Assembly: GCA_000934665.2 (NCBI GenBank)
Contig: JYFJ02003770.1
Coordinates: forward strand, 1 to 41,015
From: Catajapyx aquilonaris
Lineage: Eukaryota
DNA: 41,015 nt
Direction: 5' to 3'
Part shown: positions 7,552-31,277 of the stretch, in pieces
How positions within the stretch are numbered: position 1 is the first letter of the stretch
Layout of the letters: every line of letters begins with the position of its first letter
Made by a program: the position numbers and the translations under genes
The notes under the pieces: model-generated
Seen by the model: only the letters and a program-made list of their open reading frames with translations
The model's database searches: none
Told to the model about the DNA's origin: nothing

Positions 7552-7558
<7 letters not shown>

Positions 7559-7584
<26 letters not shown>
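7559..7584. repeat. (GA)n microsatellite
   Basis: About 13 uninterrupted AG units, downstream of the paralog A stop. Confidence 0.95.
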
Positions 7585-7741
7585 TGGTGGGACTGAGCAA
7601 GTCACAGATCTGCCCGTACAGTAGTCAGAATTGAGAGAGGCCAAAGGGACTCTGGTCAGGAGCATTTGTACTCAAGTAGTGAGTGCTCCAGCCCTCATCC
7701 CATCAAATCCTGCCCCAGTCATCCTCATTGTCATTCCTACA

Positions 7742-7777
7742 TCCTCCTCCTCCTCCTCCTCCTCCTCCTCCTCCTCC
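7742..7777. repeat. (TCC)n microsatellite
   Basis: About 12 TCC units; source of the poly-S/L/E/R pseudo-ORFs in the ORF track. Confidence 0.95.
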
Positions 7778-7818
7778 CCCCACCCACCCTCCCTCCCGGC
7801 TGGTTCCCTCCAGTGGAC

Positions 7819-7835
7819 AATAAACAACAAATAAA
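7819..7835 (+). terminator. Candidate polyadenylation signals of paralog A
   Basis: Two AATAAA hexamers (7819-7824, 7830-7835) followed by GT-rich sequence, about 600 nt after the stop. Confidence 0.5.
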
Positions 7836-8603
7836 TATCCGTGTGCAGTCTTTGTTGCACTGCACGCGTGTCTCACTTTGGCTTTTTCTCACCCTGTTAT
7901 CCAAAAATGCAGTGACAAAGATATTAACCACAGAGTCTAGGAATGTCTCGTGTTCCTTACCCAACATGTTTCGCTGAGAGAGACCATCACATGCAATGCA
8001 GTAATGACGTGTTTTCTCATCACCATCGACAGCCAGCATATCCCCATCCCCCAGCCTCCACTTCTCTCCCACTAGTGCTCTCAGCACTAAAAATACCTAC
8101 TAATGTTGGTCGTCAGGAAACGCAACCGTCTGATCGCCTATATCTGTATGCAAGTGACGTTAAGGGGATGGGTTAGGAGGGAAAATGGTTGTCGGAGCCT
8201 TGCAGACCCTCTGACCATGTGCCGATGAGGGCGGACATGCATGACAGCTAGCCCCTTGACAATTGAGGTCATCCCAATAATTGCCTGGCTCATTCTGCAC
8301 TTCTGTGTTGAGAGTAGGACGTGCGGTGTACGTATAGCGCTTTGTCTACCCTGAAATCATCTGCTTGCGCCTCTTGATGAAAACGAGCAAGGACAATCTG
8401 ACAAGGCCATACCACTCTTTCCTCATTTCACCTCCACTTTCCTCCACCAATCATCCTTTCATTGTTATTCATCCTAATATACCTGACTGTTGGAAATCGG
8501 AATCCTAGGAAGCGGAAGTAAACATCGAGTTTCTCTTTCACACGTTTCCCTGGTTGACATCTTCATAGTTTCGAGACTGCTGCAAGAGGATTGACAAGCA
8601 GTC

Positions 8604-11600
8604 ATGTATAACCTGAAGATTCTACGGCTGTATTGGAAGCATGTGGTAATAGTTGTGGCACCACTAGCGTTGCTTTCTCTGGCCATTAATGATGACCCGG
8701 TGAGTCACTACCACCCACCAATTCCTAGACTGCAACCCTTCCCTACCTATTTTTACTACTTTGTCTTAGTCTCCCCACTGCATGTCCCGATATAAGTTCC
8801 TAATTTTAAATGTTTTGCACCCGGGCCAAACCGGTCCCCCTGGATCTGGGCCCATCACCTATTCACCACTCTTTCCGTATGTGATCGTCGCGCGGCGTGG
8901 CGATGATGTTCAGGCCTCGAGATGTGCCTATGTCGTACTCCTGATGGCAATCTTCTGGATTACGGCGGCAATACCTTTGGTCATCACTGCCTTATTCCCT
9001 GTGGCTTTCTTTCCGTTACTGTCCATTATGTCCACGGAATGCACCACATTACCGTACATGAAGGAGACCAACATGATGTTCATAGGAGGTCTTATCATTG
9101 CCGTCGCATTTGAAGAGATCGGGCTTCATCGTAGGATGGCTCTCCTCGTCCTGATGGCCATCAGAGGAAATCCTAAACTGTAAACATTCAATTTTGCCTA
9201 GCCACATTACGTAAATGTGTAGTAAATTGCAGCCTGTAATCTCTAAAGGGCGCTCCTCGGAGGAATGTTTGGCACCATGTTCATCTCCATGTTTGTAAGC
9301 AACGCTGCGGCCTGCGCCATGACGCTGCCTATCAACATGGTCAGCCTGCAAGTCGTCTGTGAGGTAACATTATCAACGAGCCAGCACACACAACACCAAA
9401 CTGGTTACAAGGAGTTAGGAGACAAGTGGTGTGGGAAATTTTAACTATCGCGGTTCTCTATGCCCCACCCACTAGATGGAATCAAATGCTCTTTCTGACA
9501 TTTTATTAGACTGTACTATGCCTAGTCAAAAATATATAGGCTATATTGAAAACTTTGTGAACATCGGTCTTTACAGTGCTGTCAGTTGTTGAGCATGCAT
9601 GCCCATATTTGCGAAAATCCTGATGGAAATATTGCTACGCGCAAGTCGTTCGTGAAGATCTTGCGCATAAATTAAAATTCCTTGTGATATAGGCTGTACA
9701 GTGTCCAGTAGCTATACAGTACATAATTATAACTTATGTAAAATGCCGAATGGAATTAATATTACGTATAGTACCTAATATGCTCAATAAAAACATCATT
9801 GCATGCAACAAATGTTTTTCAAATATTCAATATTATTCGATTTTCATATACAGTTATGCCAGGCATGGGCTAATCATACGAACAGAGCATGTGTATATCG
9901 CAGTAAGAAACCTGTATCGAGGAGGCCGGATATAGTTTGTTCCCCAGAAAGCAGTTTATCGAATCATTGTATTTGACTAAAGCATAGGTGTACACCCATC
10001 CAAGAACTTCAATGTGGTGCATACCGAGTAATGTAATAGGCTAATCAGGCCCATACAAGGCTGAATATTTATTGGAAATATTATCATACGAAGGCAAATC
10101 AGAACGTAGCCTAATTGAAAACTTTTTAAATTCAGAAGTGTATAACATACTAGAGAAACTGAAACTGAGATATACAGCATATGAAAGGTCAAGTCGTTCT
10201 TTAATATTTACATATAGTCACCATACAATTTTCTGCATTTGTCCAATCAGGACACGAGTTTTTCCATACCCCTGCCGAAAAAAGCGTCAGACTGTGCTGG
10301 GTGGGAAGCCAGTGGGGGGTGGCCTTTTTCACTTCCTCGATGTCGCTGAAGTTCTGACCTGCCAGATGCTTCTTCATTGGTCCAAAGAGATGGTAGACCA
10401 TGGGTAAAATCACCTCTTTGGACCAAAAAAGAAGCACTAGCTTCTCAAGACCTCAGCGACATCGAGGAAGTGAAAGAGGCCATCCCACACTGGCTTCCCA
10501 CCCACGCTGAAGTTCTGAGCTTCTGACCTGCCAGGTGCTTCTTTTTTGGTCCAAAGAGATGGCTTTAACCGCATGGACTACCATCTCGTTGGACCAATGA
10601 AGAAGCACCTGGCAGGTCAGAACTTTAGCGACATCAAGGAAGTGAAAGAGGCCATCCCCCACTGGGGGGGGGGGGGGGATCGTCATGACGCTTTTTAAAT
10701 GCATGATGGGTATGGAAAAGCTATAGTGTCCCGCTGTGACAAATGCACTAGTACTAGTGTATGGTGACTATGTCTAAAATTAGAGAAAGACTTGCCCTTT
10801 CATATGAAAATCTCAGTTTCAGTTTCTCTATAGTTACACTTCTGAATTTAAAAAGTTTTCAATTACAGTACTTTCTGATTCGCCCTCGTAGCATGAGGTA
10901 TGTTAAATTCGTTTATTTTCAGCACTCCCAACCTGAATCGAAAGAAGACACGGAAAAATCGTGAGTCATATAACCATGTGAGTAAAAAAGCTGGAAAAAA
11001 CTATAAAATTTCGATTTCCAATCAGGGAATCAAAAGGAACTCCCGAAAATATGGAACTGGCTTATCTGTTGGGTACTGCCTATGCCTCCACCATCGGAGG
11101 TTGCGGAACTCTAACCGGAACTGGACCAAACCTCTACTATCTTGGGCTTTTTAACGAGTAAGTATTAGTGAGCCACACTAGTCATATACATATAGCTATG
11201 ATACTATGGGTACAGTATAACCGGGAAAATATAAATATGTACTTGATCTTCGCAGCATATACGACACACACACCCCGATCTCCTACACTAATTGGGCCTT
11301 CTTCAATATTCCGCTGATGCTATGTTGCCTTTTCCTTACATGGTTGTGGTTGCAGTGGTACTTTATAGGACTTAAATGGTGAACTTATATTATTCGGCAA
11401 TAGCACATGGTATTGTTAAAGTGGGACATGAGTCTTGATGACAATCAATGCTTTGGGCATAAAATTTTACAGGTCCACTTCTGATGAGGACAGGGAGGTA
11501 GCCAAACATTTGCGATTAAAGCTCAAGGAGGAATACCAGGAACTGGGGCCAACTTCCTTCGGCCAGTGGATGACTCTCTTCATTTTCGTAGGCGCTGTAT

Positions 11601-13001
11601 TGAGTTGGTTCTTCTCTAAGCCACGTTTCATGACGGGTTGGGCAGACCTCTATGAAAATATTGACAAAAAGAAGTGTGTTTCCATTTATTTCATTTTTTG
11701 TGCTCGTTTTTTTCTGAAAGTGTCACATAATCTAATTTTATTTTCGTAATAGGGTTGTGAAGGATTCTTCTACCGCCATAGTGGCTGTCATTCTGTTGTT
11801 CATCTTCCCTCGAAACCTCAAGTTCATCGGCAGGATATGGAGAAAAGGTGAACACAGACACACAGGCTACACAGGCACAATTTTTGGAAAATGGTTGTAC
11901 AATAGACCGGGCATTTATGCAAGTGTACCGACAGCCGTCTTATACACCCTGGTTTTTGTCGCGCTTTATAATGGATATAATCGCTCACTTTTCCACAAGT
12001 GTTTCAAGGCCTAAATCGCTCGCCAGTTTTTGCCGCATCAAGAGATCGAAATGTTGCATTATGTCATACATAAGATTGAAGGCAATTTATGAAGGAAAGG
12101 CTTTCAAAAAGTACAGTAGACTACATCACGTAAGAGAGGAAGCGTGTCATTTGTAAAAACAAAACAAAAATATAGCCGCCTTTAATGCACTATAAAATCC
12201 TAAATAATTTTCTGTTGCCTTGAAATCAGTTTCCTCACTAATACTAACTCCGCTACAGAATGGGACGAATTAGAGGCCACACCCTCCATCCTGGATTGGA
12301 AAGCCGTACATGCCAAGACACAGTGGGACGTCATCTTCCTATTGGGTTAGTATAGCACCTCAGGTGTACCTGCACATGCTCTTCTATAGAGACCATAGTA
12401 ACACATATGTCATGTCTTCAGGAGGCAGCTATGCCATGTCGGCCGGGATAAATACATCTAAGCTGTCCCTGGAAGTATCCAAGTCGCTGAGGGTGCTGGA
12501 GGACCTCCCTCAAGTGGTCATAGTCTTGGTGGTGATCTTGATGACCTCGTTCATGACAGAAGTGGTGTCCAACACAGCCGTGGGTAGCATCTTCCTGCCT
12601 CTCATGAACAACTTGAGTCACACCCTTAAGGTCAACCCCGTCTACCTCACTCTCCCTTGTGTCATAGCTGCTTCCCACTGCTTCATGCTGCCCATGGGCA
12701 CCCCTCCAAACGCCATCGCCATGGGGGCTTCGCATGAGAAGCTGACTATATCAAAAATGGTATACCTTTTTTGTTTACTCCCAACAAAGTCAGAAGTTTT
12801 TCAGATTCTCATATGTATTTTTAAAATTTCATTTCTGTGATTTAGGCGAAGGCCGGCATTGTACCCAAGTTGCTGTCTGCGATCTTGCTGTTCACCATGA
12901 TTAACATTTATGCCCCTGTCATCTTCGACTTCCAATCAGATTATGCTGTTAATTGGGCTCAATACGCCAATTTTACTGGAAAAAGTAAAGCTGCATGTTA
13001 A
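8604..13001 (+). CDS. Indy: SLC13/DASS family Indy-like transporter, paralog B (complete, about 548 aa)
   Basis: Exons: 8604-8699, 8914-9179, 9249-9363, 10923-10960, 11026-11157, 11256-11378, 11473-11673, 11753-11847, 12259-12345, 12422-12759, 12846-13001 (1647 nt). Exon lengths 266, 115, 95 and 87 are identical to paralog A. Motifs: MFVSNAAACAMTLPI, AYASTIGGCGTLTGTGPN, TEVVSNTAV, FMLPMGTPPNA, C-terminal sequon NFT. Confidence 0.92.
10089..10888. mobile_element. Non-autonomous fold-back mariner derivative in intron 3 of paralog B
   Basis: TA on both flanks. TIRs CGA(A/G)GGC(A/G)AATCAGAA...AATTGAAAACTTTTTAAATTCAGAAGTG. Both arms translate to the mariner transposase C-terminus (DYHLxGPMKKHLAGQNFSDIxEVK): minus strand at about 10201-10398, plus strand from 10573. 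Confidence 0.88.
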
Positions 13002-16000
13002 TTCTGCATCACCTGTCTTTCAACGTCTCTCCTATATGCTAATGATCAGGAGGTGCTCGTTCCAGGAAGAAATAGCCCGCATGAAGACATATACGGCTTC
13101 ATTTCGCATTCATTCAAACAAAAAACATGAAAATTCATTTTAAAATATGGACGATTTTTTTACAATGGTTTGCAAAATGTAGGCTACGACCCCATTACCG
13201 ACACCATCAATTATTTCAGAATAGTTCTGAATGGTTCTACGCATTTCTGCAGTGAATGTTAGCCTATCAAAGAGAGTGTGTTCGTGAAATAGGCCTACTG
13301 CTTAAACCCAAAGCATTGTCCTAATTTATTTTAAAATTCAAGCAATAGGTGTCCAAAAATGATATTATGCTATACAGTACCTACCTTATTTACCTCAGTG
13401 AAGTTACCCAAGTTCCATAATGAAGCACAAGGTAGGCCTATTTAATTTAAGAGTCACACATCGACATGTGCTGGCATCTGCAGATATATGTAAAAACTAC
13501 TCATGTGTTCCCAGGTGTTCCAGCCCCATGCGCAGGAATAACACGACTGTATCACTGTTGATAATACAGTATAGTATCGGTGGTTTCATGTTCCGGCTAC
13601 CTATGTTTATATTCACGCCATTACAAAGGGTACTGTCCCGCGCGTTATTACACACTTGATATGCAATGTTTTTATGGATAGTGAATATATCGCAACAGGA
13701 ATAAGTTCGCACGAAGTACAGTAGGTCATAACAATTTTTATCATAAACGCGTATCAAAATTTAGCTGAAATTCGGTGCTTAAGAATGTGGTGACGAAGAG
13801 GCCATAATTATGACATCATTTAAGAGAGGACGAATTATAGCTCAGTGAGTTTTTAGCTATAACTGAGTTGGGCAAGGCCTCGTATATGTGTGGCTAAAAA
13901 TACACTAATATCTACAGTATACGGTATGTGTAGAAAAAAGGCTGAAGGTCGTAACTAGAGGAATGGGATAAGGAGCAGGATGATCCAAAAAGGCCTTACG
14001 GAAAATAGCCTACAGATAGGCTAACCAATGAAATTCATGGACACTACCTGCTGTTCTTGCCGCCGGATTTTATGCATGGTGCATTGCTAGTCATGTTATT
14101 AATATTATCCAGTTAAGTGAACTCTTTTGCATTAATAATTATCATGTGCAATTGGCCTGTGAAAATGCTATTTTTTATACCTGCGTATTCCTGTAGAAGC
14201 TAAAAACAGGTGCGTCCACTCAGATTACTACACTGTGTTATGCACACTAATTATTATTATTCTTAATTGGTACGTGAGCCCAAATGGCGGTATAAATGGC
14301 CCATCCCAAATTTTACGGCATTTTCTACTCGATGTAATAACGTCACAGACACTGCTCGTTCCGGCTTTTGGACTGAGCAGAGGGTTTCGTTTCAGGAAAA
14401 TTAGTATTGTACTACTGTAGGTATAATGCTATATAAGCCTAGCCTCCAACTCTCCAATTCCAGGCTTATGAACAGAATATTTCATGAATATTTCATCTGA
14501 GAATTTCGTGACAGAACCCTACTCTAGACACTATCAAAGTTCGATTACTATACAAGAACAATGCATTTTATAGACTATTGTGCACTGCTATAAACATCTC
14601 TAGAGTGCATGTAACCTTTATGAAATCTATGAATGTAAATTGTTAAGATCAACTGAACAAATTACCTTACACCACAACTATATAGTTTGTCGCAGTGACA
14701 CCCCTACAAGTTTGGAGTTGGTACCTCGCTCACAAGGAAGTTAACAATATATAATTCTTCACAGTGCATCTACGGTATAGTTGCGCAGCAGCATGGAAAC
14801 TACCGTACCTATTTTCCAGAGCAGTAGGCCTTCCATAATACAGGTATAGTCATTAGCTCTTGGTATAGTATATTAATGTCCAATTAATCTTGTTAACGGC
14901 ATGGGCAGGTGTTCTACCAATTTCCTTGCAGCTTACTCGAAATATTCATGCATTTTGTCCATCTTTACATTCAAAGCTTTGGCAGAATAAGGCGTATATA
15001 TACGCCTTCTTCTGAACGTCATATTTCTTCCCTGAAAATCTCAAGATGTGTGTAGGAGGTTGCACGTCATAACTTTGTCCCCCCTTCTGTCACCTGTAGC
15101 CTCCACCACGGACCTGACATACGTCAATCAGCAGTTCCCCACCTCAGCCCGAGGCCCTCCTCCACTAATGCGGAAGAGTGGTACCTGCACCGATGCACTT
15201 CCCTGGAGCAAGCAGCATGACTCTAGAAAACCAGAAATAGCTCCAGCTGATTTCTACAAGGTTGGTTGGTACTGGGCTGATACAAGTGGGTTATATACCT
15301 GTCCTTCTCTTCCTGTCACGCTCGCACCAAGGAAGCTCTCTTTCAGGTATCTCGCCCTGTGTGAATCCCACCCTTGTATACCATCTTGTATCTTTTTAAT
15401 GAGGTTCTGTTTACCATCGTAGTTTTCGAGTCGCATCATCGCCACCTATTTTCTTAGTAGGATACATGTCTTATAATAATCAAATTGTTGCTCCGCCCCC
15501 CCGCGTGCGAGTCTCTCAGAGCGAAACAACATGTATCGCACAAGTTAGCACGCAATCTTATCGGTGTTTTTTTGTTGCTATACGCTTTGTCAGACGTAAC
15601 CACTGCATTTTTAGTGAAGATAAAATAAATATCACCAGCATACTGGAGATATTTTATAAAATGTCACAGAGTAATTGTTGTGCGCCTTTTGTATTTGTGA
15701 AGTATATCAACAGATTTTTTTTCCTTAACCAGATGTACCGTGCGGTTAATCTGGTGTCCTGTCGTACCGGCGTCGTAAAATACTTTCACAGGCGAAACAG
15801 ACTGCACACGTACAGTACCGTCTAAAGAGAGGCGGTTTGTTCAAGATTGTTCTCAGAGGTCAAGCTCCCTAGTTTTCCCCGGGAAGGTCAGTTCCTTCAC
15901 ACTATTCCCATAAGCGCAGTAGTATTTATTTAACTTTTTTTTCATTCAGTAAGGTGGAAGACCTTCAATAGAAATATACTTGATAATTACTACATATTTA

Positions 16001-16530
16001 CCCCAACTCGGAGCATGAAAACCGGAAAGGTACCAGATTCGTCACAAATTGCTCAGAGCTACCACATTTTACCTTAGGTATGTGGTCAGTTAGCCGATAG
16101 TATCTGTAGTGCCCAGGAGCATCCCCAAACAGTTTAAAAGCGGAAAATACCCAACCTGGATATATAGGGTGCCCTGTATGATTCATTCCTCCCTCCCCCG
16201 CTTTGTCACCTTCACCCAGAAGACACGTAGATCCCCGATTAACGTCACTATTCTGTAGCCGTGTCAGAATAGTGCACATTCACTCCCCCTTAGCACTCCC
16301 AATTGTGCTTCTAGGCATAAACTGACACAAATCAAGGTCGCAGGTTTTTCAACGGAAGCGACCTCCAGTGCCATACCAGTGCATCTGCAGTCATTCAGAA
16401 TACTCTTCTGGAGCGAAGCAGTCGCCCATTCCGACTGCTTCTCTCTTCGCTCATTGACATCTGCTGCTCGTACGAGGGTGTACCAAACATACTGTCTGCT
16501 GACCAGTGACAATAAGGGACCTGTTGAACC

Positions 16531-17863
16531 ATGAGGAGCACCGCTTTCATTCTGCTGTCGCTGTACTGGCGACAGATAGTGCTATGGGTAACACCTGTCG
16601 CGCTTCTGCCGCTGCTCATCATATCTCCGTCAGTGGTAAGTTCTATTTAATATCTCGATTATTATGGGATGTTTTGGCATGTATTGCGAAAAAAAATATC
16701 AAATGGAGCGAGTCCAAGTGGGAGAATGCTGCAGTTGGTGAAGCACCCGTTTGGTGACAATAGTTACACCACGATCTTACTCATTGTGGTATGTGTTGTA
16801 TGTCCTACAGTGAAAAATGGCAAAATATGTCAATGCCGGCACGTGGCATTTATATTCCAGCTGATAATAAATAGTACAAGTGCATGGGAAATAAATTGTT
16901 CTAATAGGTCGTCAATCACACGTACAGTATATTACGATGGAAGTCTGTTCATGCTGGATGTTGATGTCTGACTTTGATAAGTGGACTCAAGCCACTGATT
17001 TTCTTTAACAATGGAATGCGTGGCTCAGACCTACATGTGAGCTTCTTGCACGTCGCGTCGTGCGAAAATGACCATCGCGGTTATTATCCTGAGCACAATT
17101 GGCAGAACGATTACTTATTATTACAACTTGTCACTTATCACGCAGTGAGTATGTCTATTAGTAAATGGAACACATTATTAACTTGGCATCAAAGTACTTT
17201 GAATGAAATCATAACCGATAAAATTTTCAATCTCACATTATGTTCTAAAAGCTAAAACAAAATAATAAGAAACTAGTTGATTTTTATAATACTAATTAGA
17301 AGTTAATTACACAAGTTGAGCATTACATGCCACTCGAGCCGTAATAAAATGTACTTAATGCACAGTATACAGAAAATTCAAAATTACATACCCAAACGGA
17401 AAAAAAAACAATTACAAAATTTGCAGATAGTTACTTCGCCTGTGAAACTACGCTGCAGGGTAATTAATACTTTAGTACTGTAGTATATGTCATTGAAAGG
17501 ACTACACATAGCATACTCTCTAATATTCATATGGACCTTGGCACTTATTACACACAGTTTCGCGTGTTATATAAATATCACACATAAAATGTACATTTTC
17601 GAGGTTTGTGCAGCATCCTTGGTTGTGATATCACTCTTTGGTCGCGGATGGGATATAATTTCGGTAATGCTATATCTTATGCGCCGAAATCCAAAGATGG
17701 TCATTACTTCTCACAGTCAGTGCATAAATTCCTAATATAGTCAGTGCAGGCGAAAGTGCCTGTCAAAAAGATAGTTCAATTTCAATACAGCTAAGCGCAA
17801 TCAAGAGAGTCGTTGTGTGACTGCCAATCCAGCCCAGAAACATGCAAAAGTTACTGGCCTGCC

Positions 17864-17926
<63 letters not shown>

Positions 17927-20900
17927 TTGTGGGTAATGCTTTCACCCCTTCGGGGTATATAGCATGGACCTTTATTGTATTTTAAGTTGTTAAGTAAGTA
18001 CATATGGTGCCTTTTTAATGAAAGCCCGGGCCCACGGGCAGGGTGACAGCAGGGGATGTGCAAGGTGCAGTGCAATGTCGTAGCTGTGGTCATTTTGTGA
18101 ACTCCCCCGGGTGGTTTAGTCTATTGGAAATACCACCCGAGACGAAGCCAGAGATGACCCCGAACTCTGCACGAGATGAATGGGGTGTCCCCGGGCTGGG
18201 ATCGAACCCGGGACCTTAACATCCGTGGGCGCATACGTTACAGCAGCGCCACTCCGTCTCCCTCTCGCAATTATTCTTATATGCAGGCCTATAAATGAGA
18301 AGGCCTAATATTACGTGAAGCTATAAATGCCTCTATCTCATTAGGAGTACATCACGTTCTAACTGATTTGTGCTCTCGTATCCTATAGTAATTTGCAACA
18401 CTTGACGGAGTAATTGGTGGGATCGTGGGACATAGAGCTTGTGACAGCCAATGTGTGCAGAACAATCATAAAACAAAATTAAAATTGAGTGCCTATACAG
18501 CAAGGTGTATACACCTTGCTATACAGTAGAAGTACTTCACCAACTTCACCATACCATTAGTTCTTGACCATACTAAGAAACCATTGTGGTTAACCGCGTT
18601 ACTCAATCTCGGTACAGTACTATTTTCAACATAACCTCGATGGGTGACTATTTTGCATTAGTTACATTTCTACCTGCCACCTGTGCCTGTGGCGAAAGAG
18701 ACCGTACTGAAGCTCCTGAAACCTCAAAGTGCCTCTGTTATCCTTGTATACTGTACAGTTGTACGTAGAAAGTAGAAACGCTCCCCTGCTGGTACCTTCA
18801 CTTACCCGCTCTACCTATACATCAGTACCACCAAACCCCTAACCCTTCTGACAAGCATCACCTACCGCGTTTGTCTTGAGCACTCTTCTTGGCCAGACCA
18901 ACCCAGACCACCAGAATGAATGTCGTCAATGGTCTTTGACACTAGCAGCGCGGGTTCCGGGCTCACAGTCCTCACACCAGGCCGACCCGCCGTATGTTCT
19001 CCCCTGGGCCCTCCGCACTGTACCTCTCCGTCGATCCCATGGCCCCCACATAATGACCTGGCTAGGTCACGGGTCATTGAGCACTCCCCCATGGCCCACC
19101 CCACTGATTCGTACCGCGCCAACACTCAAAAAGGGCTCTTCACCCCTCTATTCCAAAATGGCGGACAACTGCGACGTTGCCAATTCGGATACATGCAGTG
19201 ATGCCGCGATTTGCAAAGGAAAAATTCTTCACAATAATTAAAATTATATTACGTTGGCTTTTTTCATGATTTTATGTCAATTTATCTTTATTATTATTAT
19301 TAAGTTTTTGCTCTGGTTTGTGACCGTATATTTATACTTTTTGTACTTAAAATTTGTGTCTAGCTTTTTTATTTTCTGTAACATTATCCTCCATGCACTC
19401 GCAAAAGTAAATTTGCATGCCTATATATTTTGAGGGTTTTTTCGCGTCTATTTAAAGGTTTATTTGTGCCTATTTCAGGGTATTTTCTTGCCTATAAAAA
19501 TGATGGCTTTGTACTTATTACATTAGTACACTAATTCCTGCCGGTACTGTGCTCCACGAAGCATCTACGAAAAGAATGGGAAAAATAATAAATGTGACAA
19601 GACAAGTCGAAATCTAGGGAGCTTACAAATTGCTAAATAATTTATAGAAATTCTAGATTCCGACATACCTGGTGATATCTTAAATTAGTTTTACGTGCCT
19701 CCATTATTTTTCTTGATAATTTCAGCTGTTATTCTCTTGAAGAATTTCACGAAATAACTATAAAGAAAACCTTTGGCCAGTTGTAAGCACATACAGTAGG
19801 CCCTACTATAGCATGTGTCGAAAAGGTGTAGTCCCGTCTGTCATCTCAGCAGTATAGGCCTATTGAGCGCTTAATTGGTTTGAGTCATTTGGCATAATAT
19901 TACGCTATAAAAGAGAATTTTGCAACTAATAACTCACTATCAGAATTTTGGAGTCAGCTAAAACATCTGCATGGAAATTATGATCGTCTAGTTTCTAGTA
20001 GTAGACTAATGTCAATTAAACACCAGGGTGGGGAATTTAAGGTGCCTTCGCTTTGGGGAACAATAGTGGGGTTTTATGTACACATGGCACGTCCGGGCCT
20101 AGTTAGTAGTTACCGAGATAATTGGCATTAAATACAGTTGACTATACTGAGGTGTGAATATACTGTATGTACTGTACTTCATTTGTAAGGTGTCAACAAC
20201 AGGGTGTCAATCTAATTTACCGTGTACGTATTTTATTTGTATTACACGGTATTGTAACGTGCATTAATTTTTATCCGCCCAAAACAAACCCTTTGTAATT
20301 ATGGTGCCTGGTACAAGTTTTTTTAATTGCCTGAAGTACTGAACATACATGCGAAAAAAATGAAATGAACCTTTCAAAATGCTGGGGGTTGGGGTGGGGG
20401 CGGCAGCAAAAGTAGCAATAACATCTTATTTATTGGGTACTACTTGTTGGCATTTGGGAAGTATGACTGCATGATACTTTTGCTTCGTTTGTCATTCTTG
20501 TATCAATGTCATGGGTGCTTCAGTCATATGAGCATTTACTTAAACGCATGACTCATCTTCCATTCAACACTGCCTGACGTCAGACACGATTGGAATACAC
20601 AGAAGTAATCTTGAATAATTTACTTTGCTTTTCAATAGATGTTGATCTTAAACCATGACTTAAGACTGCCATCTTCTGCATGTGTCCAGTGACGCAAGCA
20701 CAATTCGAATGAAATTACTAATTATGAGGTTGCGTTCATTCGGATCACGCCCTTCAAAAAATTTGCATGGTTTTGTTTTGCCGAGTCACTATTTTTAGAC
20801 CCTGTTGTGTAAGAAAATACTGAAAAACGCTATGAACGTTTGAGTATTTTTCGTGAGAAACAGATATGTTGTAAGTCACCCTCTCCATGTTTGTGCAGAT

Positions 20901-23900
20901 ATACTGTATGTGCAGTAAACATCCAGCTGAGATGCAACTTATTTTTAGGCCACAATAATACGCGCACGATACCGAGATATCAGCAATTAAGTTGTCGGCA
21001 ATGAAATCTACACCCTGACAAGGACACTTGTTAATTAGCCTGAGAAGATCATATCTTTTGAGAGCACGTCACACCACAACAAATAATTTTGACCCCAACT
21101 TTGATCCGCTCTCTACCAGCTTTGCTATAGTACACACTCGTCTAGCGTGCAAGAAATTTGTTAAGAAAAAAGTGTGTTGACTTGTTGTTTACATTTCCAG
21201 GAAAACAGATGCGCATACGTGGTCCTGATCATGGCGATTTATTGGGTGACGGAAGCCATCCCCTTGGCTGTCACCTCTCTGATACCCGTGGCGCTATTTC
21301 CTGCCCTAGGAGTGTTGTCCACCTCAGAGGTGTGCGAGCAGTACCTGAAGGACACCAACATGATGTTCCTCGGTGGCCTCCTCATTGCCATGGCCGTGGA
21401 ACACTGCAGCCTCCACCGTCGCATAGCCCTGATAGTGCTGATGGCGGTCCGTGGAAGTCCCAGATTGTGAGTACACACGGTCCTAATTTCAACCTTTCCC
21501 TTCCGGGTATGTACCGTAGCCGGTACCATGCAAGCTGAAGCGGATGCAAGGCCAACCACACATTACTGGTCGAAGGTCATCGTGTTCACCGGAAGAAGCG
21601 TCTCCAAGGAGCCAATCTGCGTATTATGGACGCGTCCCGGAAAGAGACGCCAAGGAGCCAATTTGAACACTGTATACATGATGTTGGCAGCATCAACTGT
21701 AGAAGCAGCCATCCGAATCTGCGAACAAAAAAAAAATTTACAGGCACACGATTCATTGGAAAGAGAAAGGAAGAGTGGAATCAGAAAAGGGCAAGGTTGT
21801 GAAGTTGTCAAGCAAATGACAATCGCATCGAATAGCATATAGGATGGACGTCAACTAAAGGTCACCTCTCTGGCCAACTCCTTGTTTTTCCGTGTGATTA
21901 TGTTGAAATTCTGCATGTCAGAAGATGATGTCTCATTATTCATCTGGAAATTATGCTTGTCTTCTGGTTAGATTTAATTGTCGGATGGGCAATTTTCACT
22001 CTGACATCTTTGCTGCAAATTGAGGCATTCCGTGCATATGTTGCTGTACCCTTTGGAGTGTAGAGGACAGTCGCGGTTATTATGGGCATAATACTAGACA
22101 CTTACACGCGGTCATTTTTGAACTATGGGAAAACCCTCATGAATCTTCCCGAGGAAAATAAACTACGTTTGTGAATGAATTCTGAGAAAGAGGCGTACGT
22201 ATCATAGAGTACACGTCCCAACTACCAAGTGACTATGTTTTTGTAGTGCTTAAAAAACACCGAGATAAAAAGACAGGCGATGCTTAAATGGAAAAGGTTG
22301 CTCAAGGCTACCACGCAGGATAGACTCCACGCTCTGTCTATAATTTGCCTATGAGAGTGCACCAGGTGCCCGGAGTTCCCACCGGCATGAGTGTGTGGTT
22401 TTTCTAATTGAACCAGTTCAAATCCAGTTGCCACTTTTGAACATCGCACGAAGTTCCAGGTGGTCATCGCAAGACGTCATAAAATTACACCGCGAATAAT
22501 GTGCGACATCCGGTGGTACTTTTGCATAGACGTCAATGTGATGTTTTTGCGACCTGACGTATATAAACAGGCTCGGTGATATATGGACTGTACCTGTTGG
22601 TACGGTTCGCCTCTCAGCTTCGGTCTTATTAGTCACCCTTTCTAGTTACAATTATTGGACTATCCCCGGAACTGAATGTGTCTCCGACTTCTCACATAAA
22701 CTGCATGTGTTGGTTACAATATTATATCATGTAACATAAAAACATTGCCTAATTCGCCATATTCGCCTATTTCATATTGAAATGGAATAAAGAACAATTA
22801 ATAGGCATCATTTACTTGTACTTCCGCCCTTCCGGTGACATGATTTATAGTTCATGTATAGCGTGATTTCGGTTTCATAACGCCGCTGGCATTACGTACA
22901 TTGAAAATTAATGAGTAATTTTCTTTTCATTTCCGGTTCCAGCCTGCTTCTGGGCATCATGCTAACCACGATGTTTCTGTCAATGTGGATCACCAACCTG
23001 GCAGCCACCGCTATGATGATCCCTATAGCTATGGCCACTCTTTCAGTCCTATCTAAGGTAGGGTGTCTCAAGTTTAACTGCTCCTGACGCACAAAACGCA
23101 ACTTAAAAAGGGATATAATATTGGTCAAATCATATTATCATCTCTTTTGTTCCGCTGCTAACAGTCAAGTTCTTATGACATGCTATTGACAACACGTGCC
23201 ATTGCACAACCAAACTCTAGGAAGATGTGAATATACTCGGGTATGTGATGCTACATATGAATTTTTCACTAATATTTTGCAGTGCGACGAGGGTGTGACT
23301 GTACAAGACCCAGAGAGAGGTCACCATCAAAATGGAGGTCCCCCAGCTCTGACAGTACCTGCAGGAAGGTAATTAAATCGCATGAGGTGCATATGACTGT
23401 ATCATTCAATCCATGAGAAAATCACAACAGCCCATTTTCATATCCCATGTTTAGCGGAGAGCCAGGTAGTGACCAGCAAGTGTCACAGTCAGCGGCAGCC
23501 CTGATGAAACAGCGTCAAACCGCATACCTGCTAGGAATCGCCTTCTCATCTACCATTGGCGGAAGAGGAACTCTTCCTGGTGCATCAGGAAACCTGGTAT
23601 ACATCGGCATTCTTGAGAGGTAATCACGTAATCTAGTTCGTCACCCTCGCTATTTACATAATTCTACGTCACATACTGTACCTACTATTTTCCCCCCACG
23701 TGCCGGTCTGATTTGGTGTGTGAAGATGCAAGGCTATCGCCACCTTCACCTTGAAGAAAGGTGGGGCCCGGTGGGGCCACACCATTCTCAAGGTCTCGAG
23801 GTTATCCTTTCACACACGCAACCCAAGTGCCTGAAATGCACGCCGGGAAGCGTCACAGGCAGGCGCGTTTAGAAAGAGTTGTCCACTTGGTTGTCCATCG

Positions 23901-25126
23901 AGCATTGTGTTCAGTACAGCTATATAGAGCAACTATTCAATTGACATGTGTCACAAACAGTAGACATGACCAGACATTCTACCCAATGCAATTTCATTAA
24001 CCAGGTTATATATCATCCTTTCTTAGCGTGTTCAAGGAGACTAGTGTGACATATGCAACTTGGATGGCGTTCAACGTGCCTCCCATGTTGATATCAACCA
24101 TCTTGACATGGGTGCTGCTTCAATATATGCATCTTGGTCTGAAAAGCAGTAGTGAGGAGTGTGGGAAGAGCAAGGCTGTGAGGGCAGAGATCCGACAGCA
24201 GTATGCTAATATGGGTGCTATGAATTTCCACCAGTCTGCCATCAGCTTTCTCTTCGTTCTTGCCATCATTCTGTGGTTCAGCAGGGACCCCAGATTCATG
24301 CCTGGATGGGCTGCATACATCAGTGACAAGTATGTGCATGCCACTTGTGGATTTTTATTGTATCCATTAGGTTAGCAATATTAAATCACAATTCCCTCAT
24401 TCTTGTGCACTTAGGACCATAAAAGATGCAACACCAGCAATTGCAGTGATCCTGTTCCTGTTTGTGCTCCCATCTGATCTGCGTTTGCTGTCAGCTCTTG
24501 GTAGCGGCCACCTCTCAGAACTCCGAAAGTTGGAGCCATCCCCAGCTCTGCTTCCATGGGAACTGGCAGTAAAGCGTGTGTCGTGGAGTGTCTTAATCCT
24601 GATGGGTGGCTCATATGCCATGTCTTTAGCCCTGGAGAGAAGTGGATTATCAAGTGCACTTGGAAAGCAGATGCTGATTCTCAGACCACTCCCCCAGCCA
24701 GTGATAGTCCTGTGTGTGATGGTAGTGGCTTCTCTCCTAACAGAGCTTGCCTCCAATGCAGCTGTAACGTCAATCCTACTTCCAATCACTAATAACCTGT
24801 CCCTTGCCTTAAGAATCAACCCCATCTACTTAACCCTTCCTGTGGCACTAGCAGCTTCATTTTCGTTCATGTTGCCAGTTGCAACACCAACAAATGCACT
24901 AGTTGTATCTGCTGCAACTACTACTTCCACAACATCTAAAACAAACAAGGCATTTTCTACGATAACAATGGTGAGGGATGGACTCGGAGCAAAGATCATC
25001 TGCTTGGTCGTCACATTTGTTATGATTCATGTGTATGGTCCACTTGTGTTTGACCTGAACCAGTTCCCTAAATGGGCAGAAGCAGCAGCCAATAGGACAG
25101 CACACCTCATCGGGGAAACAGCATGA
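16531..25126 (+). CDS. Indy: SLC13/DASS family Indy-like transporter, paralog C (complete, about 583 aa, intron-poor 3' half)
   Basis: Exons: 16531-16635 ([35 protein letters not shown]), 21201-21466, 22943-23057, 23283-23368, 23455-23619, 24027-24329, 24415-25126 (1752 nt, phases consistent). Motifs: [65 protein letters not shown]-terminal sequon NRT. Confidence 0.92.
17864..17926. repeat. (AAT)n microsatellite (SINE tail)
   Basis: About 21 perfect AAT units. Confidence 0.95.
17864..18262 (-). mobile_element. tRNA-derived SINE with (TTA)n tail
   Basis: Minus strand begins GGGAGACGGAGTGGCGCTGCTGTAACG (A-box-like) ... AAGGTCCCGGGTTCGATCCC (B box). About 330 nt of head plus body, then about 21 TTA units (17864-17926). 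Confidence 0.8.
18493..18526. mobile_element. Collapsed hAT-like remnant: 18-bp palindrome between 8-bp direct repeats
   Basis: CTATACAG (18493-18500) + CAAGGTGTATACACCTTG (18501-18518, perfect palindrome) + CTATACAG (18519-18526). Confidence 0.55.
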
Positions 25127-25869
25127 AGAAATATGCCCAAATGCAAGAAAGCTATGTTGTGAATATTGGATTCCAAGCAAACATCATATAGCATGCCAAT
25201 ATCCTAGTGATGTTCTTGCCCAGCTGACAGTGCATATGTGAAGGGCAATGATGTCATAAATCAGTGAACATCATATCATGGCAGGCCCTAGCCAACTTGT
25301 TATGTCCCTTCCAAGTCATGTTACTTCATACCATTCCTTCCTCACTCATTACTCAAGCATGGGACATCTCAGCAAGATATGTTGAACTGGTGTGTGGTGG
25401 AGTTTGAGCCATCAAAACATCAAGTAATCCAGGTTTCATTGCATATTTTTTCCCACTCTCCACTTCCATTAGTGGGTTTTACTTCCGACCCACTGGTACA
25501 ACTATTGATGCCACCGCTACTTTTCCCCTTTTTATGTAACTTCATAAGCATTTAGATATAAGATGGGCAGCAATGCATTCGTCTTAAAGTATGGACAAAC
25601 TTTAGTACAATGCGGAAGAAGGGTGGGAAAAGTGATGCATATTCATACATTTGTATTAATGTAACATGCCAGTAAAACAATGAAATATAGTAATGCCTTT
25701 CTGTGGAGAAAATGGACCTGAGTTGAGCCTACTGTTACTTCAGACATGGGGAATGAAAAAAATAACTTCTTACAAATAATACATATACAATCCTGCTAAC
25801 AAAGCTGAATTTACTTGGAACACTAAATCAGTTGTTCCTCTTGGATTCCTCTAATAGTCTAATTCTTAA

Positions 25870-26581: not shown

Positions 26582-29500
26582 TTACACGTGAATGAGAATG
26601 TCTTCGGCTAGGAAGCTTCCCTGGGAGCTATCCATGTGCTCTACGTCATGCTGAAATACTTTAACTTCTTCCTCCTCCTCCTCCTCATCTTCATTTGCCA
26701 AACCTTTACTTAATTGGCTGACCTGCTGTCTACTGCGTTGCTGCTCCCTTACCCTAGCATGCCTCATCTGATGTGTCTTGAGGCTGCTTGATTGGTTGAA
26801 CATTTTCCCACAGTCATTGCACTTGTATGGTCTCTCCCCAGTATGAATCCGCTCATGGCGGATTATGTGGGACAAGTGGTTAAATCCCTTCCCGCACTGT
26901 CCACAAATGTAAGGCTTCTCATTAGTATGGGTGCGTATGTGCACTGTGAGGTCATACCGCTTGAAGAACCGCTTCTTACAGATAGTACACTCATGGGATC
27001 GCTCGTTGTCATGGTCACGACGCATGTGGTCACGGGTCTGTGCAGCACTGGAGTAACGGCGGGGGCATGCAGTGCATTGGTAAAGAGTCACTGTGGGTTT
27101 TGAGCCCGGGGCGCCTTGTAGCTGGTGAGCCAGAAGGTGCTTGTTCAGGGTGGATTTCCATGCAAATGAGGTCCCACACTCTTCACACTTGTATTTCTGA
27201 AGCTCAATGAAGTGGATACCTGAACAGGGAAAGACATTAAACTGCGAATTAATTATCTGTACTGCTCCTTCCAAAGTAACATCAGATTGATCCACACAGA
27301 TTCTTGGACTACAAATCTAACAACTTTTCATAGTTTTGTAAATATCAGCTGATGTGAAGGTTTCACATCTCAATGCACATGCACTTAAAAATATTTTTAG
27401 TAAGTTAACGAAGCTAAAAAAGTAATCTGCCAATCATCCATGGAATCTGTAGCAGGCAAAGAGTCCACTTGGAGTCAAATTGCAAGCTCTCACTAATTTT
27501 CTTTACCACAGCTATCTCTTTACTGCAGTTGTTAAAGAATTACATTTAATGTCACTTATAGTGGTATAAAAAGTAATTCGTCACTTCAATCGAACTGTGA
27601 ATTCAATGACATGCAGTATACTTGTGTTTGTAAAATTTTCATATTACTCATAAGTTGTGAAACCATCAAAACAATTAACTAAAAACATATTCAATGCAGT
27701 ACTGACCCATATGCTGCCTGAAGTTACCAGGCTTGCGGAACACTTTGTTGCATTCCGTGCACTGGAACTTGCCAGGTCCCCCAGATTCTGATAAGCCAAC
27801 CAGGTAGGACCCTGGATATGCATCACCTTCACTGTCACCTCTAGTATCACCAGGAATGTTCTGGGGCTCAGTCATGGAGAGAAGACCTGGATCTGGTGAC
27901 ATTTGGCCAACTGCAATCATTTCATCATTCCCATTTCCTTCATTGCCACCACTGCTGTTATCCATGTCTTCTTCAACCTCATCCTTCTCTTCCTGTATCG
28001 CAGGTTCCTTCTTCTCCTCATTCACAAGAACATAAATGTTTGACACTTCCTTAGTTTCATTCTCTTCAATGACTCCCATTCCTCCTGCTTCCCCTGCCTC
28101 CACTCCCACCCCTGTGGTGCTGCCTGCATCACCCACAGGCCAACAATCATCCAGAATACTTTGCTCAATGAGTGTCTGCAACTGCTGGTTCAGTTGCTGG
28201 TTCAGTTGTTGGTTCAATTGCTGGACTGCTTCTGCAGCTTCTGTCTCACCACCCCCTTCTCCTCCTCCTTCCCCCTCCTTGTTGCCAATTTCATCCTTTA
28301 TCAAATCACTAGGGGGAACTCCAGTGGCTCCACCACAAGCGTGACCTTTAAATGCCTCAACTGAAGAGCACATCTTTAAAAAAGAAAAAAGAAAAAGAGC
28401 ATTAATTGTTCAACAATATCCAGGTGACTTCGTTACAATAATAGCACATGTGTGGTTGGAGATTAATTTTAAACCTACACAATAATTTTCTTCTCCTTGC
28501 TACCAGCAGTGCCTGGGATTAAGTTATTTTCACATCCATATTTGTCAGGTGCCCATGAGCCATGACTACATAATACAGGGTGATCCAACTCTATGGCACC
28601 AACAGTTATTGGAAAAATCGCGCAAGCTGCTTGTTTATAAGCAGGTCGTTGCTAAGGGGTGCTATTCCTGATACTCTAGAAAGTATCTCTTAGCAACGAC
28701 CTGCTTATAAACAAGCAGCTTGCGCGATTTCTCCAATAACTGTTGGTGCCATAGAGTTGGATCACCCTGTATTGTGCAACACTAACATTAACAAGCAAAA
28801 AAAAAAGCCCAATGATGCCCAAGTTGTTATGAGAGATGAAACAATGAAAATAGTGAATTTTATTGCAAGAAGTTCTCACCTTCCGGCAACCAGAGCAGAA
28901 GATGTACTTTTGGCTGCAATGAACCTGCCTCTCATGGTCTTTCAGTTGGGCTCCAAATGGGAAGGACTCCCCACACACCTGACAGTAGAATCTCCTGCAC
29001 TTCTGTAAACCAGCCTTCTTCACAGTTTCCTTCTTGTTTTCTTCTACTTCAGGTCCTTCAGACAGTGGTAAAATAGATTCTACCTGCTGCAGATGAAATT
29101 GATTTAATTTTCCATCTCCAGAAAAGGACGCAATTTTCACTACATTACAACGTTACTATTTTATAATGTGGCATTTGCCCCAAATCTGCAGCAAAACTTG
29201 GTGTGAACTGGCAATAGTGAAAATCAAACACTAACGCAACATGCACGCAATGCTGGACATTGCACGGATGCTTTTAAAGAGAAGAAATATACTGCAGCAT
29301 AATATTATGGTGTATTATCAGTTGCATGGTGCATCTAATGAATATTCACTAAGGCTTTAGGGCCTCTGTACATTTTACCTGCGGATGAGCAGACTTCTTG
29401 TGCAGCCGTAGTGCGTTAACCTGAGCAAACCTCCTCCCACAAGTGCTGCATGGATATGGCTTGACTCCAGTGTGGGTGCGCACATGCCGCAGCAGGTTGG

Positions 29501-31277
29501 ACACATGCCCAAACTGTCTCCCGCAGGTCTCACATATGCACACCTTAATTCCCAAATGTAGATTAAGGTGTGAACGAAGATCACTCCCTTTGAAGAAGCT
29601 CTTCGGACACATCTGGCATTGGAATGGTTTCTCCCCATCATGCACTCTTCGCTGGTGATACTTGAGCTGGGACGGTCGATCAAAGGCCATTTCACAATCG
29701 GCATGTGGGCAAATGAATGGTCGGCAATTGTCGTGAGTGGAACGTTCATGTCCACGCAGTCTGGATTCTGTCCGGAAACTTTTCTCACACAAGTTACACT
29801 TCCAGTTGCGTTCACCAGTGTGGGCATGTAGATGCCCAAAATAGGAAGGTTGAGTGTTGAAGCGAGATGAGCAGAGATCACAGGGATATGGACCATCTGA
29901 TGATGGGGTGGAGGGTGATTGAGGTGGTGGAGGGGGAGCACTTCCACCTGCTCGAGGTGCCATTGCATCTAATGCTTGGAGACGTGCTTCAATTCCATGA
30001 TTTGACATTTGCTTGGCAACATCTTGCCAGAGGATGGTTGAAGGAGGCTGCTTTTTTTCTGCTTCATCACTGACGACCTCAGGTACTTCATAGGTTACAT
30101 ATAAAATCTGTCCACCAGACAACTGTAGGGCGCAATCATCACCTTCTGCAGCTGGGTTTGTTTCTGGTGCTTCCAACTGTAAGGGCGGTAGGAAGCCCAT
30201 GTTGGTGTCCTTCCTAACCTAGTGTTCAGAAAGCTTCAGTTAATAGGTGACTCCAAATAAATTTTATTTTAAACTTTAAAGTTAAATGCATGTGTCACTG
30301 GGCATTTCCATGATGCATCCGTCCGTTCGTAACACAAGTTTTGCCTACATGCACAAATGTATTTTATTATGACAATGCCAGGATGCATGCACTGCATGCT
30401 TAATCCATTTCATGCAATGTGTGTGTATGGTTACAATAAAATACGCTAGTACATGTCGGCAAAACCTGCGTAACGAACGCACAGTACGTCTGTGTTTGCG
30501 TGGAAATGCCCCACAACATGCCAGGCTGAAGTAAGTAATAAATACTTTGATACCCTGTCATAGACCTGGGGACTCTTAGGAATCATTTTGCATTTGACTC
30601 AACATCCATATATTTCAATGATGATGGGTTTTGATTGTGGAAATAAATCAAAGAAAACCCACATGAACAGAGAGCCCACCCATCGAAATTCTTCCCATAT
30701 GCAAAAATCCTCTGCCTCATGCAGGGATAGAGAGTGGGACCACAGAGGTGATATGGCATGTGGTTTACATAACTCTATCACCACTTGCAAAGATATTGTA
30801 AATGTGTGTAGCAAATGTAAGTAATAAAATTGTTATAGTGTTCTCAGTTGGAAAGAAAATATATTCCACTCATATTTCTTACATTCAACCAATAATTGAA
30901 GACTAATTACTCAACAAATCTTCATGAAATATGCAGTCACTCAGCACTAACCTGGTTCTGTCCTTCCAAAGACTGCACATATATCACCATTGGAAGTTCT
31001 GTGCCTCCAGCTTCCACAGTAGGTGTGGACGGGGTTGTTGTAGTTTGTTGCTGGCCGCTCTCCCACCACCTTCCATCCCACTTGGACAGCACGATGGACT
31101 GGACCTCTTCACGAACACGTTCCATTGCTGTCACTCCGTCTCCCTCCATTTCCAACTCACTAAACTGTTCCATGCTTTCCTCTTGCATTTCCATCTTGGT
31201 CATCATTGTTGCACTTCCTGCTGGAATGCACTCCTGGGTGGCACTTCCAATGGACTGGTCATGAACTGGGTCCACTT
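26582..31277 (-). CDS. Multi-C2H2 zinc finger protein (13 C2H2 + 1 C2HC finger, at least about 854 aa)
   Basis: Minus-strand exons: 31277 (first in-frame ATG 31206)-30952, 30176-29379, 29086 (or 29083, CAGCAG acceptor)-28880, 28373-27707, 27219-26582. Splicing completes split fingers (CSGCRK|MCSSVEAFKGHAC; FRQHM|GIH). HTGE[RK]P-type linkers. True start and any upstream exon are unresolved. Confidence 0.9.
28180..28223 (-). repeat. Coding 12-bp tandem repeat (QQLN)3-QQLQ
   Basis: Lies in the acidic linker exon of the zinc-finger gene: QQLNQQLNQQLNQQLQ. Confidence 0.85.
28576..28769. mobile_element. Tc1/mariner-type hairpin MITE in a zinc-finger gene intron
   Basis: TA flanks. About 80-bp near-perfect inverted arms starting CAGGGTGATCCAACTCTATGGCACCAACAGTTATTGG, with a short spacer. 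Confidence 0.92.
30300..30511. mobile_element. Degenerate MITE, possibly PIF/Harbinger-like
   Basis: TIR GGGCATTTCCA...TGGAAATGCCC plus inner inverted blocks (CGTTCGTAACACAAGTTTTGCC / GGCAAAACCTGCGTAACGAACG). TSD unclear. Confidence 0.6.

Follow-up and report, generated by a model that had tools for sequence, protein, structure and literature searches.

We analyzed a window of 41,015 nt (contig JYFJ02003770.1, positions 1 to 41,015, of GenBank assembly GCA_000934665.2 from Catajapyx aquilonaris), a stretch of eukaryotic DNA with 43% G+C and short introns, and found that it carries three tandem SLC13 (DASS) genes on the plus strand. Paralog A lies at about 2.9 to 7.2 kb, paralog B at 8.6 to 13.0 kb, and paralog C at 16.5 to 25.1 kb. 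In paralog C, the end of transmembrane helix 5a (TM5a) carries an arginine, Arg228, and the adjoining loop between the two halves of this helix (L5ab) is altered. We propose, with a probability of roughly 0.4, that C is a maintained, transcribed SLC13 protein in which the end of TM5a and L5ab have been rebuilt around a fixed positive charge, changing its coupling or its substrate. Its sequence suggests that C probably differs from its relatives in ion or substrate coupling.

The residue changes that the initial annotation had listed for C were all found in the DNA. The codon at 23564-23566 is AGA (Arg228) in C and TGC (Cys) in both A and B, a difference of two bases. L5ab (P232-G-A-S-G-N237, 23576-23593) reads P-G-A-S-G-N in C, T-G-S-G-P-N in A, and T-G-T-G-P-N in B, and the whole motif in A and B is GGCGTLTG[ST]GPN. 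In the first reentrant hairpin (hairpin-in), the SN of A and B is TN in C (ACC AAC, 22992-22997); in the second (hairpin-out), SNT is SNA (24752-24760); and in loop L10ab, TPPN is TPTN (24884-24895). The Asn residues of both hairpins are retained in C, where hairpin-in reads T-N-L (its Leu common with A) and hairpin-out reads S-N-A. The canonical L5ab pattern x-G-[ST]-x-P-N was not found in C, which conforms to it at Gly233 and Asn237 alone. We also found two further C-specific changes in the facing half of the site: P506T, at the pseudosymmetric partner of P202 in the bacterial transporter VcINDY, and A497S, two residues past Ser495. A 13-residue stretch is the same in A and C, as claimed, and the open reading frame (ORF) of C is intact, with seven exons (16531-25126), every junction GT-AG and in frame, and a product of 583 amino acids (aa). 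The models of A and B are likewise open.

The loop of C (CCT GGT GCA TCA GGA AAC) can be derived from that of A (ACC GGA TCC GGA CCA AAC) in two ways. Either six bases were substituted or GCA was gained and CCA lost, which shifts Ser-Gly by one residue. Under the two-indel reading, the loop Ser (S235) may have been displaced rather than lost.

Exon 5 of C aligned without gaps with Drosophila INDY (GGCGTIIGTATN), NaDC3 (GGTATLTGTAPN), and VcINDY (GGIATLVGSPPN). In VcINDY numbering, Arg228 is equivalent to Ile194 on TM5a and G-A-S-G-N to G199-S200-P201-P202-N203. In NaCT, the segment is G219-G-T221-A-T-L-T225-G-T227-G228-P229-N230 (codon table, supplement 3 of PMC12204159), and Arg228 is equivalent to Thr221. 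It is reported that in VcINDY, a density termed Density X is liganded by N203, S412, and the carbonyl of A408, with I194 and P202 at 3.9 to 4.0 Å and S200 at 4.2 Å, and that the same density is present in NaCT, NaDC3, NaDC1, and NaS1 maps; a second density, X', lies 4 Å from X, 5.9 Å from Na1, and 5.1 Å from the substrate (PMC13394699). L5ab, together with the hairpin-in tip, forms a clamshell around Na1 (PMC9098524), and by these two accounts the C loop corresponds to half of that clamshell and to part of the Density X pocket. We found that the residues that flank Density X without ligating it are changed in C (I194 to R, S200 to A, and P202 to G), and the ligands are retained as N237, S495, and A491, the C-terminal equivalences being obtained by counting from the alignment ends.

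Charge at this position has been scored in NaCT. In a deep mutational scan of the human protein (PMC12204159), T221R, T221K, and T221H are deleterious, with Prob[Del] (the probability of being deleterious) at 0.999, 0.998, and 0.994; T221C, T221I, T221Q, and T221S are neutral, as are S140T and P229G; and T225P, T227A, and G228S have no scan score there. The computed destabilization is moderate for T221R (0.8 to 3.6 kcal/mol across four models) and large for T221H. In VcINDY, Ser200 contacts the substrate, and S200A nearly abolishes transport (PMC13394699).

Four DNA runs from one sample covered the full stretch. The fifth run, X5, whose kind is not on record, derives from a different sample and study and contained 33% of the sampled words. 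We placed X5 contigs on 5201-25200 and found that they skip introns; because of this, we treated X5 as RNA derived. Record 11 (728 nt) matched 21200-21466 and 23453-23619 with 0 differences, the Arg exon included. Its 199 nt between exons 2 and 5 equal exon 3 (115) plus exon 4 (86) less 2 ambiguous bases. In record 12 (1418 nt), position 24329 abuts 24415 and the match continues through the stop codon. With X5 taken as RNA derived, we therefore concluded that C is transcribed, that it is spliced as modeled, and that the Arg codon is present in an independent sample. A lack of expression had been named as a finding that would undo the proposal of the initial annotation; instead, spliced X5 contigs join C exons at the predicted junctions. 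Contig depths are not usable for ranking the genes, and X5, which has no cover on B, is uninformative on B expression.

The alignment comprised the three paralogs and 224 of 269 database proteins, the 45 shorter than 440 aa having been dropped. At the 26 columns conserved at ≥95%, C had 0 mismatches and A and B had 1 each. The corresponding counts for C, A, and B were 2, 4, and 4 at the 46 columns conserved at ≥90% and 13, 14, and 16 at the 85 columns conserved at ≥80%. Tajima relative-rate tests of A against C were balanced with five of five outgroups (51/51, 43/56, 45/49, 39/42, and 40/41; p = 0.19 to 1.0), and B was the fast paralog. These comparisons give no sign of a general relaxation of constraint in C.

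Arg228 had no counterpart among the 224 homologs. Arg, Lys, and His were each absent from the column, where Thr (81), Ile (80), Val (26), Met (19), Leu (12), and Cys (3) were commonest. Ala234 recurred in 3 of 224 (Thr in 194, Ser in 22), Gly236 in 1 (Pro in 187), and Thr506 in 3 (mostly Pro). Thr141 was found in 18 homologs and Ala462 in 13, the commonest residues being Ser and Thr, respectively. Two of the changed columns are variable: Ser235 was shared by 11 of 224, and Pro232 sits where Thr, Ile, and Val alternate and Pro occurs in at most 2 of 223. The retained residues are common ones, with Ser at the S495 position in 215 of 224 homologs and Asn at the N237 position in 213 of 223.

Published work served to define 20 site positions, comprising both SNT motifs, L5ab, L10ab, and three further Density X residues. 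At these, C has six residues with a family frequency below 5%, which ranks it third of 227 rows. With A and B taken for comparison, changes specific to C number 8 of 17 at the site positions versus 62 of 227 elsewhere, an enrichment that is suggestive and not significant alone (one-sided Fisher test, p = 0.076). Lineage-specific changes at these positions number 0 of 9 in A and 2 of 11 in B. The contrast of eight site changes with none between C and A, two paralogs of equal rate, is the stronger signal (sign test, ~0.008). In this alignment, the unusual residues of C are shown to concentrate on TM5a-L5ab.

The cysteine that A (region of 3950-3952) and B (exon 5, 11026-11157) carry at the Density X-lining position is itself rare, being found in 3 of 224 homologs. 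Drosophila INDY also has it (GGCGT), and T221C is among the neutral changes in the NaCT scan.

C is recognizably a member of its family. The domain PF00939 (Na_sulph_symp; cut-off, 27 bits) matched exon 2 (61.3 bits), exon 6 (48.5 bits), and exon 7 (73.3 bits). Against exon 5 alone, it gave no match in C or B and only 14.4 bits in A, from equally short queries, and the Pfam family CitMHS scored 21.4 bits for A, 16.2 for B, and 13 for C on this exon, all weak and without discrimination. When the last exon of C was compared with the PDB, we found NaCT (E = 9e-38), NaDC1 (1.4e-33), and NaDC3 (1.9e-31), as well as Drosophila INDY and NaS1. Of the ten top-ranking representatives that were looked up, nine were arthropod proteins (two of them from an ostracod and the others from ticks, a mite, a copepod, a damselfly, a prawn, and a horseshoe crab) and one came from a nematomorph. 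A word-indexed protein search with exon 5 of C gave 57 candidates, none with E ≤ 10; because the query is short and the control search with exon 5 of A was likewise blank (63 candidates), this result says nothing about uniqueness. Within the literature searched, we came across neither a natural SLC13 bearing an Arg, or any basic residue, here nor a study of SLC13 paralogs in arthropods.

To place the three genes, we built a tree of 51 rows by a quick search under LG+G4; besides A, B, and C, it comprised 38 representatives of 520 to 700 aa along with 7 named animal proteins and 3 bacterial sequences as outgroups. A, B, and C formed one clade (Shimodaira-Hasegawa-like approximate likelihood ratio test, 99), nested in a starred clade of 23 rows to which Daphnia, scorpion, and damselfly proteins also belong, and their end branches were 0.44 (A), 0.60 (C), and 0.79 (B). 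Pairwise identity was 55% for A and C, 50% for A and B, and 44% for B and C. Synonymous sites are saturated among the paralogs (proportion of synonymous differences [pS], 0.68 to 0.75; synonymous divergence [dS], 1.8 to 4.6). Judged from the tree and this saturation, A, B, and C are old, lineage-specific duplicates, and the saturation implies that the ORF of C has therefore long been kept open. The pairwise ratio of nonsynonymous to synonymous divergence (dN/dS) is ~0.2 for A and C, a value that is uninformative for the C lineage owing to the saturated synonymous sites.

Taken together, the real changes at the site, the conservation of the rest of the protein, and transcription favor changed function over decay. 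We place Arg228 in the X pocket because six VcINDY residues, Ile194 included, surround Density X in solved cotransporters. The side chain of Arg228 would fill the X/X' pocket and hydrogen bond with Asn237 and Ser495, so that a fixed positive charge would lie within a few angstroms of both the Na1 clamshell and the carboxylate of the substrate; the loop changes may make room for it. The predicted outcome is that cation binding at Na1 is weakened or lost (with a lower stoichiometry and less electrogenic transport), that anion preference is altered, or both, in a protein that would not be a LaINDY-type exchanger. The initial annotation had read the clustering of changes as neofunctionalization. 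Of that claim, the part that stands is that the changes are real, lie on binding elements, and occur in a protein otherwise as conserved as A and B; the clustering itself is suggestive at the level given above.

Several points weigh against this proposal. Density X was once suspected to be Na3, and the authors of PMC13394699 argue that it is a buried structural "linchpin" water and not a third Na+. Read plainly, the deleterious effect of NaCT T221R predicts transport loss and not new coupling. In VcINDY, S200K, S412R, and S412H failed to express and N203H stayed electrogenic (PMC13394699). We infer the direction and reach of Arg228 from one published Ile194 distance. About 2% of the sampled family is as site divergent as C or more so, and the enrichment of changes relative to the rest of the protein falls short of significance by itself. 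Drosophila INDY, which has Cys at this position, as A and B do, is H+ coupled (PMC11782487). Finally, we found no ortholog of C in protein databases that could speak to conservation of the Arg; there, the best identities of the 236-aa last exon were 38 to 44%, and the window's proteins were themselves absent.

A more specific version of the proposal, which we consider unlikely, is that Arg228 permanently fills X/X' and serves as a built-in cation at a site other than that of LaINDY, giving reduced Na+ stoichiometry or Na+-independent, electroneutral transport. According to the authors, the X pocket possibly holds a third Na+ in some family members, e.g., Pho90 (PMC13394699). If this version were true, C would be a natural counterpart of the surrogate mutants that failed in VcINDY, and it would show which loop changes (S200A, P201S, P202G, and perhaps P423T and A414S) make a charge tolerable.

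The main rival to rebuilt coupling is that C has lost transport and retained another role, and the NaCT data fit it equally well. C would then be a dead or noncanonical transporter kept as a regulatory partner (e.g., in heterodimers with A) or as a sensor, or it would be a loss-of-function gene too young to have decayed. Consistently with this, Arg, Lys, and His at NaCT 221 are deleterious, transport by VcINDY S200A is drastically reduced, AlphaMissense rates NaCT T227A likely pathogenic (0.82), and DASS proteins are dimeric (PMC12204159). However, C shows 0 mismatches at the 26 columns of highest conservation and its protein evolves at the rate of A, the duplication is old (pS, 0.68 to 0.75) with an ORF long open, and C is spliced and transcribed. 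In addition, S235 lies one position later than the loop Ser, and the hydroxyl may be shifted rather than lost. We regard loss of transport as doubtful, although it comes closest to the proposal of changed coupling.

It is also possible, but quite improbable, that C is an ordinary Na+-coupled dicarboxylate or citrate transporter whose changes are tolerated variation. Several of its residues are minority states already present in the family (T141 in 18, A462 in 13, S235 in 11, and T506 in 3 of 224 homologs), S140T and P229G were neutral in the NaCT scan, and ~2% of homologs have equally unusual sites. This does not account well for Arg228, since no homol­og among the 224 has Arg, Lys, or His in that column, positive charges at NaCT 221 are deleterious, and Ile194 of VcINDY is buried beside Density X. 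Moreover, the other two paralogs show 0 of 9 (A) and 2 of 11 (B) lineage-specific changes at the positions where C has eight.

The initial annotation had suggested that the Arg could substitute for Na1, as positively charged side chains do in bacterial exchangers such as LaINDY. Its premise was right: LaINDY has Arg159 at Na1, salt bridged to Glu146, and His392 at Na2 (PMC7553777; PMC11782487). Under this explanation, which we think is still less probable, the Arg side chain of C would replace Na+ at Na1 and C would be a Na+-independent exchanger. It gains from the positive charge added on one wall of the Na1 clamshell, from Ala at the S200 position, a state reported for DASS exchangers (PMC13394699), and from the distance of 5.9 Å between X' and Na1, across which a long side chain could approach. 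However, the surrogates of LaINDY lie elsewhere. Arg159 is in hairpin-in, three residues past the binding-site Asn156, and in DASS exchangers Arg159 and His392 are conserved and accompanied by insertions in hairpin-in, hairpin-out, and L10ab (PMC7553777). C has Ala145 three residues past its hairpin-in Asn, an equivalence drawn from published numbering and not from an alignment, and its hairpin tip contains neither Arg nor Glu. It also has no His of the LaINDY type in hairpin-out or L10ab and no insertion there relative to the 224 homologs. Ser495 is the cotransporter state of S412, where exchangers have Leu or Ile, and the Na2 half is nearly canonical (SNA, ATPTN). Substitution for Na1 was thus not supported, the Arg of C being on TM5a at the position of Ile194, which in VcINDY lines the X pocket rather than Na1. 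By these residues, C is no exchanger of the LaINDY type, and its Arg occupies another site. Both ordinary function and a LaINDY-like surrogate are less likely than altered coupling or transport loss.

An error of assembly or sequencing, or an incorrect gene model, is extremely improbable and excluded as far as the data go, since the DNA runs and independent spliced contigs agree letter for letter over exon 5 (0 differences), the Arg codon is a two-base change and the loop a change of six bases or two indels, every junction is GT-AG and in frame, and we found no point in support of an artifact.

Debate continues over where the third Na+ of SLC13/DASS cotransporters is located and what the density in the core of the transport domain represents (PMC13394699). 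Engineering a cationic residue into this pocket did not succeed in VcINDY, and in human NaCT function is abolished by a positive charge at the equivalent residue. C, which occurs naturally, is expressed, and is otherwise well conserved, carries such a charge together with a rebuilt adjoining loop, and it is of value mainly as a natural test case for the question of Density X and the third Na+. Together with its neighbor A, which is 55% identical and has a canonical site, it forms a ready pair for questions of ion coupling, electrogenicity, and transport-domain stability. If C is inactive, it is an ordinary diverged paralog.

We detected the genes by six-frame translation and by tblastn with four full-length SLC13 proteins, and their exon models were assembled manually, guided by reading frames and splice sites. 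Paralog A (2918-7230; GGCGTLTGSGPN, SNL, SNT, and TPPN) is modeled from exon 2 to the stop codon, and X5 record 9 joins its exons; its exon 1 was not found within the window. Paralog B (8604-13010; GGCGTLTGTGPN, SNA, SNT, and TPPN) is a hand-built model without the variable exon 4, which was not located in the window.

All seven exons of C are on the plus strand. Exon 1 (16531-16635) holds the start codon and encodes 35 aa (MRSTAF...ISPSV; donor GTAAGT). It was identified by similarity to exon 1 of B and a donor scan, and the X5 depth of 0.74 in the bin 16540-17206 corresponds to ~94 nt of a depth-5.23 contig that runs into exon 2. Exon 2 (21201-21466) encodes the TM2-TM4 region and has both its PF00939 match and the exact match to record 11. 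Exon 3 (22943-23057) encodes hairpin-in (codons of T141-N142-L143, 22992-23000), and exon 4 (23283-23368) encodes a variable cytoplasmic loop; both are modeled and agree with the length of record 11. The span given in the initial annotation begins at 22943, where exon 3 starts, and takes in exons 3 to 7 only. Exon 5 (23455-23619), which encodes the end of TM5a, L5ab, and the start of TM5b, is supported by record 11 and the ungapped alignments. Exon 6 (24027-24329; TM5b-TM6 and onward) is equivalent to exons 6 and 7 of A fused and ends at 24329 in record 12. Exon 7 (24415-25126; TM7 to the stop codon) is equivalent to exons 8a, 8b, 9, and 10 of A fused, and record 12 joins it to exon 6. It encodes S460-N461-A462 of hairpin-out (24752-24760), Ser495 (24857-24859), and A503-T-P-T-N507 (24881-24895).

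Within exon 2, we found a C/G polymorphism at 21369 that changes Leu92 to Val. It is present at about half depth in DNA run X1 (34.5/68.4) and also in two X5 contigs (9.42 of 14.6), which indicates that both alleles occur in transcript-like contigs. Two X5 contigs match exon 2 only from 21339 on and have unrelated sequence before it (median, 213 nt), perhaps owing to an alternative 5' exon, to contig chimerism, or to another paralog outside this locus in the genome.

The 3' part of C has fewer introns than its neighbors. When we compared 24027-25126 of C with 4251-6961 of A and 11256-12759 of B, we found that C is without four introns whose positions and phases are the same in A and B (after A 4370, 5703, 5862, and 6778). 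The last coding intron of A (after 6961) is also missing from C, and the five introns of the 5' part are shared. This 3'-biased loss fits past recombination with a reverse-transcribed copy. Exon 7 also encodes an 11-residue Thr/Ser-rich insert (24914-24946) in the cytoplasmic loop between TM10b and TM11. It is missing from A, B, and five aligned solved eukaryotic SLC13 chains and could be a phosphorylation-rich regulatory loop. Asp535 (region of 25016-25018; MVRDGLG, at the start of TM11) is found in 0 of 224 homologs, the commonest residue being Ala (78); A and B read KAG. Its site is on the cytoplasmic side and probably far from Arg228.

Intron 1 of C contains a very-high-copy dispersed repeat (17874-18540), with a summed X1 contig depth of 137,283 versus ~35 for flanking single-copy DNA. 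The repeat is also abundant in X5 (3,584). Rfam and tandem-repeat scans of it yielded nothing from Rfam and just an adjacent (AAT)21 run. Lesser repeats lie at 9870-11203 and 19208-20541, in the intron of B and upstream of exon 2 of C. Downstream of C, on the minus strand (26582-30200), we found three C2H2 zinc-finger ORFs (26582-27295, 27675-28373, and 29349-30200), which are probably part of one or more zinc-finger genes.

Among known systems, the exchangers LaINDY, CitT, and TtdT (DASS-E) show the concept of a fixed positive side chain in place of a bound cation, and at the S200 position, where C has Ala, they carry Ala or Met. Unlike C, they have Arg159, His392, insertions in both hairpins and L10ab, and Leu or Ile at S412. 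C is thus mixed with respect to exchanger marks, with S495 in the cotransporter state of S412 and A234 in the exchanger state of S200.

In the tree, C falls among the animal SLC13s. It shares with NaCT (SLC13A5; PDB 7JSK and 8UVB), NaDC1, NaDC3, and NaS1 the family, the architecture, the pair of hairpin Asn residues, the pair of loop Asn residues, and the Ser412 equivalent. Relative to NaCT, T221 is changed to Arg, T225 to Pro, T227 to Ala, G228 to Ser, and P229 to Gly, and the five solved eukaryotic chains are without the 11-residue insert that C has past TM10b. Drosophila INDY (PDB 8ZKW), an arthropod SLC13, as are the closest database relatives of C, and an H+/citrate symporter, is the best PDB match to exon 5 of C. 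In contrast to C, its loop reads I-G-T-A-T-N and its Na+-site residues are kept, and its H+ coupling is ascribed to a tighter cavity and not to a built-in charge (PMC11782487). In VcINDY (PDB 5UL7 and 7T9F), a bacterial Na+/dicarboxylate cotransporter, I194 to N203 align without gaps to R228 to N237, and S412 and N424 correspond, by counting, to S495 and N507. There, in contrast to C, Ile194 is hydrophobic and Ser200 and Pro202 are present, and the cationic residues engineered into this pocket were either not tolerated or left electrogenicity unchanged.

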